This document shows positions 33,467-40,395 of a stretch of DNA of 64,000 nt, in pieces. The stretch's first letter is position 1, and each line of letters opens with the position of its first letter. This DNA comes from an uncultured Spirochaetota bacterium (GTDB lineage Bacteria; Spirochaetota; Spirochaetia; SZUA-6; DRHE01), in contig CAVUYS010000068.1 in NCBI GenBank assembly GCA_963745745.1, forward strand, positions 27,614-91,613, read 5' to 3'. The notes beneath the pieces were generated by a model that made no database searches, was not told the origin of the DNA, and was given only the letters and a program-made list of their open reading frames with translations. Position numbers and translations under genes: made by a program.

Positions 33467-34429
33467 ATGCGTAACGAAAAACTGCGGACCACGGGACTCC
33501 TGGCCGGGCTGCTGCTGGCCTTCGGCGGCACGACCCTCCAGGCCCAGGTCCTGAAGGAATATCCGGTCCCTGCCGGCTCCCATCCCCACGACGTGGCCCC
33601 GGCCCCCGACGGCAGGGTCTGGTACACGGCCCAGAACGCCGGGGCGCTGGGCTGGATCGATCCGGCCACCGGAGCCGGAGGACAGGTCCCCCTGGGCCGG
33701 GGCTCCCGGCCGCACGGAGTCATCGTGGGCCCGGACGGCAATCCCTGGGTCACCGACAGCGGCCTGAACGCCGTCGTGCGGGTGGAGGCGGCCACGGGGG
33801 CGATCACCCGCTTTCCGCTGCCCGCCGGCAGCCCCGCGGTGAACATGAACACGGCCGCCTTCGACTCCCGGGGCACGCTCTGGTTCACAGGCCAGGCCGG
33901 GTACTACGGCAGCGTGGAGCCGGAAAGCGGGCGCGTACGCCTGTTCGACGCCCCGCGGGGCCGCGGGCCGTATGGGATCGCCGCGGCGCCGGATGGCTTC
34001 GTCTACTACGTCTCACTGGCCGCCGGCTACCTGGGGCGCATCGACCCCGCCTCCGGCCAGGTGAGGGTGCTGGAGCCCCCGGGCCAGGGCCAGGGCACCC
34101 GCCGGGTCTGGGCGGACTCCCGGGGCGTGCTCTGGGTGGCCGGCTGGTACTCCGGGCTGCTCCTGCGCTACGACCCGGCCGGCGACGCCTGGCAGGAGAT
34201 CCGCCTGCCGGGGCAGCGGCCCCAACCCTACGCCGTGTACGTGGACGAGCGCGACCAGGTGTGGATCAGCGACTGGGGAGCCGAGGCCCTCCTGCGCTAC
34301 GACCCGCCCTCCGCGCGCTTCCAGAGCTTCAAGCTGTCCAGCGGCGACGTGCGCCAGCTGCTGGGCCGGCCGGGCGAGCTGTGGGGGGCAGAGTCCGGAG
34401 CGGACCGCCTGGTGGTGATCCGTTTCTAA
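33467..34429 (+). CDS. Secreted beta-propeller protein, virginiamycin B lyase (Vgb)-like repeats
   Basis: The start at ATG 33467 inside ORF 32801..34429 gives the signal peptide MRNEKLRTTGLLAGLLLAFGGTTLQA. The repeats are of the type P.GVxxGPDGxxWxT (HDVAPAPDGRVWYT, PHGVIVGPDGNPWVT, PYGIAAAPDGFVYYV). Confidence 0.7.
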   Translation: MRNEKLRTTGLLAGLLLAFGGTTLQAQVLKEYPVPAGSHPHDVAPAPDGRVWYTAQNAGALGWIDPATGAGGQVPLGRGSRPHGVIVGPDGNPWVTDSGLNAVVRVEAATGAITRFPLPAGSPAVNMNTAAFDSRGTLWFTGQAGYYGSVEPESGRVRLFDAPRGRGPYGIAAAPDGFVYYVSLAAGYLGRIDPASGQVRVLEPPGQGQGTRRVWADSRGVLWVAGWYSGLLLRYDPAGDAWQEIRLPGQRPQPYAVYVDERDQVWISDWGAEALLRYDPPSARFQSFKLSSGDVRQLLGRPGELWGAESGADRLVVIRF

Positions 34430-34887
34430 CGGGGCCGCAGGACCAGGTCGAAGACGGCCTCCCGCCGGCCCGCCTTCGGGTAGTGCTGGGTCACCAGGAT
34501 GGCGTGCCCCACGGCGCTCACGCGCAGGTGGAGGTGCGGGGGCCGGCCGGCATACGGCGGCGGGGGATGGCTGGTGAAGCGGTAGCGGCCTTCGGCATCG
34601 GCGATGACCGTGGCCCGGTAGTCGTCCGAGTAGTCGCCCTCCGGGCCCGCCAGCCACAGCTCCAGCACGGCGCCGGGCAGGGCGGACCCGTCCCGGGAGG
34701 ACAGCACGCGCCCGGCCAGCAGGTAGCCCTGCCCCACCGATGCGCGCACCGGGGCTCCCGGCTCGTAGAACGGGCCCAGTGCGTCCGACGGGGTCGGGCG
34801 CAACGCTTCCTGGGCGGAAACCCCTGCCGCGGCCGAAGCGGCCAGCAGGACCAGGATCGGCAGCAGCGGGCGGACGGATCTCTCCAT
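34426..34887 (-). CDS. Small secreted intradiol-dioxygenase-like protein
   Basis: Signal peptide [58 protein letters not shown] and PPHLHLRV resemble the intradiol ring-cleavage dioxygenase core. RBS AGGAGGA. Confidence 0.6.
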   Translation of the reverse strand: MERSVRPLLPILVLLAASAAAGVSAQEALRPTPSDALGPFYEPGAPVRASVGQGYLLAGRVLSSRDGSALPGAVLELWLAGPEGDYSDDYRATVIADAEGRYRFTSHPPPPYAGRPPHLHLRVSAVGHAILVTQHYPKAGRREAVFDLVLRPR

Positions 34888-34896
34888 GTTCTCCTC

Positions 34897-38843: not shown

Positions 38844-39347
38844 TTACTTTTTTTGTAAACTTTTCTTGGCTCGGCCGCCGGCACCACCAGCGCCGGCCCC
38901 GCCCGCCTTGCCGCCAGCGCCGGCCCCGGAGGCCCGGCGCCGCCAGGCCAGGCGCACCCCGTCGCGGCCGGCGGCGTAGTAGTTCTCGAACCGTCCCTCC
39001 TCCCGGAAACCCAGGTCCCGGTAGAAGCGCAGCAGGCGGCGGGAGGAGCGGGCCACCAGCTTCAGGGCCGGGTAGCGGGCCTGCAGCGCGGCCAGCAGGC
39101 TCCTCCCGTGGCCGCGCCCGCGATGGCGCGCGGATACGGCGATGTCCACCACCTCGGCGAAACCCCGGCCCTCGTCCTGCTCCACGAAGGCGTAGCCGGC
39201 CACCTCGCCGGCCCCGTCCGTCAGGACCAGGCCCGCGCTGGCGTCGGCCAGCAGGTCCACGATGCCGAAGGAGTTCTTCCAGACCTGCCGGTACAGGCGC
39301 ACCACCCCGCGCACGTCGGCCAGCCCGCGGATCCCGCGCACCTTCAT
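38844..39347 (-). CDS. Small GNAT N-acetyltransferase (RimI-like) with a Gly/Ala-rich basic tail
   Basis: The start at MKVRGIRG (ATG 39347) inside ORF 38844..39824 overlaps the upstream stop as ATGA. Acetyl-CoA motif VSARHRGRGHGRSLL. The tail is GAGAGGKAGGAGAGGAGGRAKKSLQKK. Confidence 0.7.
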   Translation of the reverse strand: MKVRGIRGLADVRGVVRLYRQVWKNSFGIVDLLADASAGLVLTDGAGEVAGYAFVEQDEGRGFAEVVDIAVSARHRGRGHGRSLLAALQARYPALKLVARSSRRLLRFYRDLGFREEGRFENYYAAGRDGVRLAWRRRASGAGAGGKAGGAGAGGAGGRAKKSLQKK

Positions 39348-40288
39348 GAAGCGGCCTCCTGGGCGCCGGCGTACCGCCAGCGATAGAACACGGCCCGGGT
39401 GTTGAGGAAGCGGCGCTTGTAGTCGTTGAGGATGGCGCTCAGGTCGTACCAGCGCACCCCCGCCCGGCGGGCCTCCTCCATGTTCGCCAGGATGGCGAAG
39501 TGGCCCAGGCCCCGGGCCTGCTCCCGGGGATCGCGCAGGCACAGGTAGTCGTCCAGGCGGTCCTGCCCGTGGAGCACGGAGAAGTTGGCGGCCACCAGGC
39601 GCCCGCCCAGGCTCAGGCGCAGGGCCAGCAGGCGGCCCATCTCCTCGGCCCGCCGCATCAGGGCCAGGTCCGTGCGCACCTTGTCGCGGCTGTACTCCTG
39701 CCGCTCCTGCTGCCCCGGAAACCGGTCGCGCCAGTAGCCGAGGTAGGCCTCCAGCAGCTCCTCGAGCAGCTCGCCTCTCACCTGCCGGTCGGCTTCCACG
39801 GTCAGGTCCAGGTTGCGCTCCCACACGGCCCGCAGCTGCCGGCGGTGGCGGCCCGGAAGGGAGGCCAGGTAGGCCTCCCGGTCCGGCCCCAGGTCCACGA
39901 TGGCCCCCGGGCAGGCCTCGAAGCGCTCCCGGGCCGCGGGCGCCGGGATCTCGAAGCAGCTCAGGTCGTCGGCCAGGTGCTCCGGGAGCAGCGGCAGCAG
40001 CCGCGGCAGAAGCGAGGGGGGACAGAAGTACTCCCGGGCCAGCAGGAAGTCATCGGTGAAGGTCCAGGGCCCACCCCGCTCCCGCAGCAGAGGCACGATG
40101 CCCGCGGGGCGGCCGGCTTCCAGCGCCGCGTACACGCGCAGCTCGGCCCCGCGCGGCGCGTAGAAGCTCTCCCAGATCAGCCGGTGGGCCTGCCAGTCCA
40201 GGCACAGCTCGTCCGCGCCCAGGGTGCCGGCCAGCTCCTGCCAATACGGAAGGGCTTCCTCATAAGAGTGAAGAACCAGGATGTCCAT
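39344..40288 (-). CDS. CelD/BcsL-type (FemAB-like fold) GNAT acyltransferase
   Basis: ORF 39344..40324, start probably MDILVLHS (40288). Its length and the C-terminal block GRLVAANFSVLHGQDRLDDYLCLRDPREQARGLGHFAI...YDLSAILNDYKRRF resemble the Acetyltransf_6/CelD family. Confidence 0.6.
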   Translation of the reverse strand: MDILVLHSYEEALPYWQELAGTLGADELCLDWQAHRLIWESFYAPRGAELRVYAALEAGRPAGIVPLLRERGGPWTFTDDFLLAREYFCPPSLLPRLLPLLPEHLADDLSCFEIPAPAARERFEACPGAIVDLGPDREAYLASLPGRHRRQLRAVWERNLDLTVEADRQVRGELLEELLEAYLGYWRDRFPGQQERQEYSRDKVRTDLALMRRAEEMGRLLALRLSLGGRLVAANFSVLHGQDRLDDYLCLRDPREQARGLGHFAILANMEEARRAGVRWYDLSAILNDYKRRFLNTRAVFYRWRYAGAQEAAS

Positions 40289-40395
40289 TGTCTGGCTATA
40301 CATTACTAAATTGCCAAGGTTCATCCAAATGAATACATTAGGGGCAAGGCCAGGCCGACGCCTCGCGGTGCGCCCGGCCGGAGGGAGGGACTCTC

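Follow-up and report, generated by a model that had tools for sequence, protein, structure and literature searches.

Background

QueC-like enzymes AMPylate a first substrate, which is then attacked by a second (PMC13376578), and Cap9 couples a carboxylate with an amine at an N-terminus (PMC13279940). For the ATP-dependent peptide epimerase MurL, adenylation of the alpha-carboxylate of a C-terminal Glu, followed by inversion, has been proposed (PMC8788868). We describe here a cluster of six co-directional minus-strand genes, one of them coding for a PP-loop ATP pyrophosphatase resembling these enzymes, in a stretch of 64,000 nucleotides (nt), hereafter the window, from an uncultured Spirochaetota bacterium (assembly GCA_963745745.1, contig CAVUYS010000068.1) that is close to 'Spirochaetes bacterium RBG_16_67_19'. 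Three of the genes, which encode a pyridoxal 5'-phosphate (PLP) enzyme related to threonine synthase (ThrC), a DUF1611 protein and the PP-loop protein, very probably constitute a conserved functional module, and this module probably makes or reshapes an amino-acid-derived small molecule. The enzyme superfamilies concerned are all known and no description of their combination was found: literature searches on the module components returned no paper describing the module, and a 2026 survey of the QueC family (PMC13329287) does not mention creatininase, DUF1611, MurL or threonine synthase and contains cluster descriptions that do not match the family reported here. An earlier reading of the window made from its letters alone (the sequence-only reading) had recognised no characterised pathway of this composition, and we likewise found neither a paper nor a curated family describing one.

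Gene content of the cluster

Because the window has about 70% G+C, raw lists of open reading frames (ORFs) are noisy, and genes were called from a frame plot of third-position G+C (GC3), three-frame translations and Pfam and NCBIfam scans. Six genes were delimited between 34426 and about 40303, as follows (listed from the upstream to the downstream end, lengths in amino acids, aa):

39344..40303, minus strand: Acetyltransf_6 acyl- or aminoacyl-transferase (FemAB fold, 'CelD/BcsL'-type); PF13480 at 37 bits against a cutoff of 22, residues 147-292
38844..39347, minus strand: small GNAT N-acetyltransferase; PF13508 at 40.4 bits, PF00583 at 38.9 bits, and PF13673
38709..38843, minus strand: C-rich spacer of 135 nt, with a sigma-70-like promoter at 38835-38807 found by promoter scan
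37590..38708, minus strand: threonine-synthase-like fold-type II PLP enzyme, 372 aa, intact; PF00291 at E 3e-51, motif GGNPTGTQKDR
36462..37593, minus strand: DUF1611 protein, about 376 aa, with a Rossmann-like N-terminal domain and a P-loop C-terminal domain; PF17396 and PF07755, E 4e-61, motif GTDSAVGKRTT
34897..~36451, minus strand: QueC/QatC-like PP-loop ATP pyrophosphatase, about 517 aa after repair of its frame; motifs SGGKDS and SCH...PCGACEKCRR, no Pfam match
34426..34887, minus strand: intradiol-dioxygenase-like protein, 153 aa, with a Sec signal peptide; PF00775 at 44.6 bits against 27.3

The junctions are an ATGA overlap between the Acetyltransf_6 and GNAT genes, a GTGA overlap between the PLP and DUF1611 genes (the DUF1611 start being a GTG that overlaps the PLP-gene stop), 10 nt between the DUF1611 and PP-loop genes and 9 nt between the PP-loop and dioxygenase-like genes. 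The six genes, their quoted motifs and these junctions had been set out in the sequence-only reading and are all present at or near the positions listed here; every family label that it gave also holds in Pfam, NCBIfam, Foldseek and PDB comparisons. The Acetyltransf_6 gene probably starts at the ATG at 40303, as judged by comparison with a 319-aa homologue (P0271), with alternative ATGs at 40288 and 40324.

A conserved module in many phyla

The neighbourhood survey was carried out on a species-representative collection with one genome per species, in which relatives of the PP-loop protein were confirmed by tblastn and 80 loci were fetched (designated by L numbers). Such relatives occur at no fewer than 547 genomic places, in Desulfobacterota, Planctomycetota, Bacteroidota, Calditrichota, Gemmatimonadota, Acidobacteriota/Aminicenantes, Eisenbacteria, Krumholzibacteria and Spirochaetota. 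Two of the hosts, Desulfosarcina alkanivorans PL12 and D. widdelii PP31, are cultured, and most other carriers are uncultured. A search with the repaired PP-loop protein at E<=1e-3 gave more than 2,500 full-length homologues, most of them about 50% identical to it and about 800 aa long, this greater length being due to a fused C-terminal creatininase domain (PF02633). A profile search that included the creatininase domain gave inflated counts, which were not used, and it was the source of the unusual fusions (P0126 and the methyltransferase fusions) mentioned below.

The gene order around the PP-loop gene is strongly conserved. A PLP-enzyme gene (PALP family) lies within 4 kb upstream of it in 65 of the 68 loci with enough flank, and a DUF1611 gene stands between the two in 60. 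The creatininase domain follows the PP-loop part in 69 of 71 loci and a gene for an enolase of the MR_MLE family is present in 55 of 64, so that the complete order PALP, DUF1611, PP-loop::creatininase, MR_MLE is found in 49 of the 57 fully covered loci. The PLP and DUF1611 proteins of other phyla share 62-70% identity with their counterparts in the window. The sequence-only reading had staked its guess on the PLP, DUF1611 and PP-loop genes occurring together in other genomes, and they do so in many phyla. What it could not see from the letters alone is that a creatininase-family hydrolase and a dipeptide-type epimerase normally belong to the module, both of which are absent from this lineage.

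These results bear directly on the possibility that the cluster is a chance neighbourhood of unrelated housekeeping genes (a threonine synthase, an acetyltransferase and a tRNA or queuosine enzyme). Such a reading could appeal to the PLP enzyme, which passes the NF004996 (PRK06381) cutoff, and to the flanks of the cluster, which are also syntenic within the spirochaete clade, but it is contradicted by the survey, with cross-phylum synteny in more than 60 loci, by coupling overlaps and gene fusions, and by scores that do not reach the cutoffs of TIGR00260 thrC and of the Pfam QueC family. We therefore regard it as hardly conceivable.

Reduced forms of the module were also found. Five to seven loci of Desulfobacterales (L025, L028, L037, L047, L056, L073 and L078) have a two-gene variant composed of the PLP enzyme and the PP-loop::creatininase protein, whose genes overlap by 4 nt in L073, and both DUF1611 and MR_MLE are gone. 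The minimal core is therefore the PLP enzyme and the PP-loop enzyme, and the joint loss of the two other genes suggests that the module consists of two sub-modules. In one 855-aa protein (P0126), DUF1611_N and DUF1611 domains are followed by a full PP-loop protein in a single chain, which is either a natural fusion that backs a physical partnership or a merged gene call.

Clustering of the ORFs of at least 90 aa in about 80 loci yielded only patchy additional neighbours, namely a sigma-54 activator (17 loci), YitT/DUF2179 membrane proteins, CorA and MFS proteins. Exporters of amino-acid type (AzlCD, EamA and MFS) lie near the module in different lineages. Some metagenome-assembled genomes carry two copies of the module. 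One variant locus, L087 (5465-12675), is arranged as PAD_porph (agmatine-deiminase family), a 104-aa protein, PALP, DUF1611, a PP-loop protein fused to an S-adenosylmethionine (SAM) methyltransferase domain that replaces the creatininase domain, and FGase (N-formylglutamate amidohydrolase family); a second copy of this unit follows in tandem at 12672-19408, either genuinely or through an assembly artefact. The C-terminal tail of the PP-loop::methyltransferase fusion has a domain in common with small proteins of about 100-112 aa that end in an acidic tail. Genes for these proteins lie in L087 at 5058-5396 and 6745-7059 as well as in L025, L028, L034, L045, L046, L047, L056 and L061; they recur beside the module in several loci of Desulfobacterota and are then usually on the strand opposite to it.

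The PP-loop protein

The PP-loop protein is composed of an N-terminal domain (residues 1-165), the PP-loop core, a four-cysteine site and a helical C-terminus. The SGGKDS motif occupies residues 196-201, and S197, G198, G199, K200 and S202 (as numbered) are invariant in 56 homologues. The cysteines are arranged as C381-x12-C394-x2-C397-x2-C400, three of them being invariant and one nearly so, and form a putative zinc site. No Pfam family, PF06508 included, matches the protein at E<=0.01, and its homologues score 11-12 bits against the PF06508 cutoff of 22; a search of the PDB with the family profile matched only the PP-loop motif. An AlphaFold2 model built on the 56 homologues has a predicted local distance difference test (pLDDT) score of 89.6 and a predicted TM score (pTM) of 0.90. 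With this model, Foldseek retrieved QatC (E 3e-5 over 478 columns), Cap9 (E 1e-3, TM(target) 0.66) and the QueC structures 3bl5 and 2pg3 (TM(target) 0.66-0.68), and the protein is accordingly predicted to have a QueC-type fold. When the N-terminal domain was modelled alone (pLDDT 87), no match was found in the PDB, the best having an E of 0.016 and a TM of at most 0.30. The label of QueC-like protein with a cysteine cluster proposed by the sequence-only reading is thus borne out for the fold and for the SGGKDS and four-cysteine motifs; of the two extensions that it could not place, the C-terminal one is helical and the N-terminal one has no solved counterpart.

The protein shares with QueC, Cap9 of type IV CBASS and QatC of QatABCD a Rossmann-type PP-loop core bearing SGGxDS, followed by a C...CxxCxxC four-cysteine site. 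It further resembles QatC in having an additional domain at the N-terminus, about 150 aa long, and a C-terminal region that is helical (PMC13376578). However, its identity to the structural matches is only 12-18%, it has no PF06508 match, and its gene partners are amino-acid enzymes rather than queuosine or defence genes. The spacing between the first two cysteines is 12 residues here and 8 in canonical QueC (PMC13329287), and the YxQxHxxE, VPxRN and YPDC motifs of the latter (PMC13329287) are absent from both the family consensus and its invariant columns, in place of which NESGRHW, GNExDTT and HYxGLxDQ are found. By analogy, the shared chemistry would be expected to be AMPylation of a carboxylate followed by attack of an amine. 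For the PP-loop family as a whole, we found no Pfam entry, solved structure or paper.

MurL is the sole named family with a sequence match to the PP-loop protein (NF041275, 27.4 bits against a cutoff of 700, E 1.1e-6), and this match is confined to residues 298-408, that is, the second half of the core and the cysteine motif. An ATP-dependent enzyme of this kind would fit a module that has a dipeptide epimerase and a dipeptidase-like domain. Membership of MurL was nevertheless rejected, the window protein and ten more distant members of its family all scoring at most 27 bits against 700; the hosts and gene context are also different and there is no MurD2 neighbour, no Mur-ligase-like gene being prominent among the conserved ORF clusters of the roughly 80 loci.

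The structural matches raise another possibility, that the module modifies peptides or proteins in a RiPP-like (ribosomally synthesised and post-translationally modified peptide) or defence-type system, in which the QueC-like enzyme would link a carboxylate to an N-terminus and the MftE-like creatininase domain would trim the product. The top structural matches are indeed QatC and Cap9, and the creatininase domain is nearest to the RiPP peptidase MftE. We nevertheless consider this very unlikely, as no small conserved precursor was detected among the ORFs of at least 90 aa, the canonical QueC substrate motifs are absent, no PADLOC model matches, and neither QatA, QatB, QatD, a CD-NTase nor any other defence partner was found in the 80 loci. 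The strict and vertical-looking synteny with amino-acid enzymes, without plasmid matches, is also unlike that of defence islands, and an anti-phage role was rejected on the absence of PADLOC matches and of plasmid-borne homologues.

The partner enzymes

For most of the module proteins, the only annotation is 'creatininase family protein', 'threonine synthase' or 'hypothetical'. The second of these names comes with the PLP enzyme, which passes NF004996 (PRK06381 'threonine synthase'; 393.5 bits against 266) and aligns end to end with the ThrC structures 2zsj, 2d1f and 1uim (E about 1e-22). It is, like ThrC, a fold-type II PLP enzyme and keeps the Schiff-base lysine in the motif NPTGTQKDR. In contrast with ThrC, it fails TIGR00260 thrC (83.6 bits against 167.1), its gene is linked to that of the PP-loop protein rather than to hom/thrB, and its substrate loop is changed, TCGNY standing for STGNT. 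A Gln is aligned with R160, a phosphate ligand of the Thermus enzyme, and these changes are family-wide. The PRK06381 'threonine synthase' label, which comes from a single PRK-derived model, is likely to be a mis-annotation.

The DUF1611 protein matches DUF1611_N at 80 bits and DUF1611 at 206 bits, and the structures 2g0t, 7xrj and 2obn at E 1e-30 to 1e-41. Its best named relative is the D-Glu N-acetyltransferase DgcN (NF041892, 148.9 bits against a cutoff of 480). The enolase of the module matches both DgcA and L-Ala-D/L-Glu epimerase, being nearest to the latter, and has an invariant DxD, presumably the ammonium-binding mark of dipeptide epimerases. DgcN and DgcA, the latter an N-acetyl-D-Glu racemase of the enolase superfamily, form a pair in D-glutamate catabolism. 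The DUF1611 and enolase genes of the module are likewise paired, having been gained and lost together in the survey. However, both score far below the cutoffs (149 against 480 and 148 against 400), they are set between PLP and PP-loop enzymes that are foreign to the Dgc pathway, and in the window lineage DUF1611 is present without a racemase. The PF02633 domain, fused to the PP-loop protein in most genomes, has the peptidyl-dipeptidase MftE as its best match (157 bits), yet it remains below the cutoff of 172, is not accompanied by mycofactocin genes and is absent from the window lineage and two others.

The spirochaete version of the module

The window clade consists of the window itself, L001/L005, L004, L084, L085 and L086. 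Where the contigs reach far enough upstream, the order in this clade is Acetyltransf_6, GNAT, PALP, DUF1611, PP-loop; the contig of L085 begins within the DUF1611 position, and the upstream genes fall outside it. The flanks are constant as well, F420_oxidored bordering one end of the cluster and Vgb_lyase and AraA the other, and the gene order within the clade therefore says little by itself. No homologue of creatininase or MR_MLE is present anywhere in the 64-kb window.

The two acyltransferases have few close named relatives. The Acetyltransf_6 protein shows weak arginyltransferase matches, its close homologues have been named 'CelD/BcsL family' by JGI, and the family is rare, with 57 homologues. 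The GNAT protein has weak matches to RimI and ArsN1, with RimI, ArsN1 and MshD all below cutoff, and ends in a low-complexity Gly/Ala/Lys tail. Considering the other carriers, Acetyltransf_6 stands beside a PALP-DUF1611-PP-loop trio without creatininase in three lineages, and GNAT also does so in two of the three. In both lineages outside the window clade the Acetyltransf_6 gene is convergent to the trio, the arrangement in L089 being AzlC-AzlD-Acetyltransf_6, and the second has Acetyltransf_6-GNAT by the trio with an EamA exporter nearby. The usual creatininase and epimerase are missing from all three lineages. Since the adjacency of Acetyltransf_6 and the trio survives rearrangement, it argues for a functional link, and the grouping of the two acyltransferases with the trio made by the sequence-only reading is upheld to this extent, in three lineages of which one is without GNAT.

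The dioxygenase-like gene had also been counted with the cluster, and here the evidence points the other way. The protein has GPFY and an HxH (PHLHL) aligned with its best PDB matches (9yh9 and 4ilt), the match covering the core domain only. Its gene occurs in L001, L005, L084 and L086 but not in L085, and in the survey it was never found with the module outside the window clade. In three loci it is separated from the PP-loop gene by a gene of Ldh/Mdh type (Ldh_1_N/Ldh_1_C), which is absent from the window and from L084:

L086, 10104-11054: Ldh-like gene
L001, 11436-12239: Ldh-like gene
L004, 5171-5992: Ldh-like gene
Window, 34888-34896, and L084: no Ldh-like gene between the PP-loop and dioxygenase-like genes

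Because it is exported, missing from L085, separated by the Ldh-like gene elsewhere and restricted to the clade, the dioxygenase-like protein is most likely the product of a neighbour, probably co-transcribed, and not a member of the pathway. In one homologue of 682 aa (P0004), the PP-loop ORF reads into the dioxygenase-like ORF. The latter part still keeps a Met and a signal peptide of its own, so that loss of a stop codon or an artefact of gene calling is more probable than a true fusion.

Proposed function

We propose that the genes of the window represent a lineage-specific form of a metabolic module that is widespread and uncharacterised and that acts by the mechanism given here, a proposal whose chances of being right or wrong we judge to be about equal. 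The PLP enzyme would make or convert an amino acid by beta- or gamma-replacement, and the PP-loop enzyme would adenylate the carboxylate of this amino acid, or of an N-acyl or dipeptide form. Attack of an amine on the adenylate would then give an amide (QueC/Cap9-type), or else the adenylate would permit inversion of the alpha-carbon (MurL-type), while DUF1611 would N-acylate or otherwise activate an intermediate. In the window lineage, the FemAB-fold enzyme and the GNAT would add an aminoacyl or acetyl group, replacing the epimerise-and-hydrolyse steps, and the product would be a small cytoplasmic N-acyl-amino-acid or dipeptide-like molecule, possibly exported. The exact order of these steps is doubtful. 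We are on somewhat firmer ground, and lean towards acceptance, in taking the substrate to be a small molecule of amino-acid or dipeptide type, because the partners are nearest to L-Ala-D/L-Glu epimerase, MftE and DgcN and because exporters of amino-acid type lie nearby. The sequence-only reading had guessed at an amino-acid-derived small molecule or a cell-envelope substituent; the former is still reached by reasoning from these relatives, and the latter has no specific support.

The main rival is that the module serves salvage or catabolism of D-amino acids, or of dipeptides containing them, from cell-wall debris. In such a scheme DUF1611 would N-acylate the D-amino acid, the enolase would invert it, and the creatininase domain would deacylate it or cleave the dipeptide, while a MurL-like PP-loop enzyme would drive a one-way ATP-dependent inversion and the PLP enzyme would deaminate the product. 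The best named relatives (DgcN, L-Ala-D/L-Glu epimerase or DgcA, MftE and MurL) are those that salvage would call for, and they are accommodated equally well by it and by our proposal, although all the DgcN, DgcA, MurL and MftE scores are below the curated cutoffs. The joint loss of DUF1611 and epimerase in the Desulfobacterales loci, the hosts (mainly lineages of sediment, soil and groundwater), the sigma-54 activator near 17 loci and the variant locus with a gene of the N-formylglutamate amidohydrolase family instead of the creatininase domain are in its favour too. However, no uptake transporter is consistently linked to the module, the neighbouring transporters belong to the exporter families AzlCD and EamA, and the window lineage, which keeps the trio without epimerase and hydrolase and adds two acyltransferases, looks more anabolic. 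Salvage thus fits the acyltransferase-rich and hydrolase-free version of the window less well, and we consider it unlikely.

Several observations nevertheless weigh against the biosynthetic proposal itself. No partner has a curated equivalog match other than the PRK06381 'threonine synthase' label, and no known riboswitch or regulator points to a ligand. The window has DUF1611 without the epimerase, though the two are lost together in Desulfobacterales, and it is therefore a poor fit to a simple pairing of DgcN/DgcA type. In L090 and L091 the Acetyltransf_6-GNAT pair stands away from the trio; it is therefore a portable two-gene unit, whose link to the module may be loose. Finally, a housekeeping or salvage function would also account for the very high identity across phyla and for the absence of any fixed transporter or regulator.

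A wider claim, which we put forward tentatively and as less than probable, is that the PP-loop family, with its structurally unmatched N-terminal domain, and its ThrC-like partner define an unrecognised pathway of hundreds of species from sediment, soil and groundwater in at least nine phyla. The chemistry might be an ATP-driven ligation or stereo-inversion yielding a new metabolite derived from an amino acid, for instance a dipeptide with a D-residue, an osmolyte, a wall component or the precursor of a cofactor; in the spirochaete branch, the product would be acylated instead of being epimerised and hydrolysed. Identification of the product would correct the likely mis-annotation of PRK06381, would extend QueC-like chemistry beyond deazapurines and the tagging of protein N-termini, and might reveal a metabolite of importance in anoxic sediments and soils. 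As the module is widespread and has cultured hosts in D. alkanivorans PL12 and D. widdelii PP31, its function is directly testable.

Frame breaks and start codon

The DUF1611 gene of the window has one frame break, near 36561. Three more lie in the PP-loop gene, the first two near 36144 and 36032 and the third at about 35010-35070. The repair of these frames that the sequence-only reading had recommended was carried out, and the repaired proteins align end to end with full-length homologues. The intact reading is supported by the ORFs of the relatives: L004 ('Spirochaetes bacterium RBG_16_67_19'), a close Illumina relative with 92-97% DNA identity, has an uninterrupted PP-loop ORF of 500 aa, and L084 and L086 have intact genes for DUF1611 (368-374 aa) and PP-loop (470-528 aa) proteins.

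Four frame breaks and a PP-loop gene without a canonical start codon could be taken as the marks of a decaying, non-functional cluster of pseudogenes. However, breaks are equally frequent in unrelated genes of the window, where 15 were counted in 8 of the 16 genes with an intact L084 orthologue, spread over 15-44 kb; two of those in the cluster are single-base insertions relative to L004, and the GC3 coding signal runs on across every break. The start codon in question, an ACG, is moreover common to the window and an independent Illumina assembly. Decay was dropped as an explanation after the window-wide count and appears highly improbable. Since the breaks are window-wide and the relatives are intact, the comparison identifies those of the cluster as assembly errors, such as arise in error-prone long-read assembly, and calls of pseudogenes in the window, which resembles an unpolished long-read assembly of a high-GC genome, are therefore unsafe. 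Other broken regions are, for example, 15479-16380, 16393-17552, 27934-28690, 31881-33384, 41087-42478 and 42478-44133.

No ATG, GTG or TTG precedes the conserved N-terminal helix of the PP-loop protein in the window (36449-36464). An ACG is found 6 nt past a GAGGAG Shine-Dalgarno sequence and 10 nt past the DUF1611 stop, at a position homologous to the called start of L084, whose product begins with Met. The same GAGGAG-N6-ACG is present in L086 (8490-8520), an independent Illumina assembly, where a TAA in the same frame lies two codons upstream. The ACG may accordingly be a genuine non-canonical initiation or reinitiation codon and not an error. Compared with L004, the window has 18 additional nt at about 36300-36335 (PP-loop residues ~40-52); they encode an Arg/Ala-rich segment that falls in a low-confidence loop of the model, and P0006 and P0004 have longer insertions at this site.

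Transcription units and flanking genes

The sequence-only reading had described the six genes as a single operon, and they are indeed co-directional with short or overlapping junctions. However, the 135-nt spacer contains a sigma-70-like promoter (TTGCCA-17-TATGTT, 38835-38807), with 2 promoter-like sites found against 0.1 expected from shuffled sequences. Promoter and leader are conserved in L001, L005, L084 and L086, relatives whose PP-loop proteins show an identity of only 71-89%. Because of this conserved internal promoter, two predicted transcription units, Acetyltransf_6-GNAT and PLP-DUF1611-PP-loop(-dioxygenase), are likely instead of one. In the leader (38709-38806), CTCTCC is able to pair with the Shine-Dalgarno sequence of the PLP gene (GGAGAG) and would possibly form a hairpin that masks the ribosome-binding site; the consensus fold is weak (-5.9 kcal/mol, 1 covarying pair). 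Rfam gave no match to a riboswitch or known RNA in the window region or in the leader or upstream region of the module at 14 other loci. A sigma-54 -24/-12 consensus element was found in only 6 of 74 loci and is not a general feature of the module.

Upstream of the cluster and divergent to it, an NADP oxidoreductase of the F420_oxidored family is encoded at 40396-41076 on the plus strand. It is followed, on the minus strand (41087-44133), by a histidine kinase with a cyclic-nucleotide (cNMP)-binding domain and a response regulator fused to an oxidoreductase of the flavin adenine dinucleotide (FAD)/pyridine-nucleotide type, a flank that is kept across the spirochaete clade.

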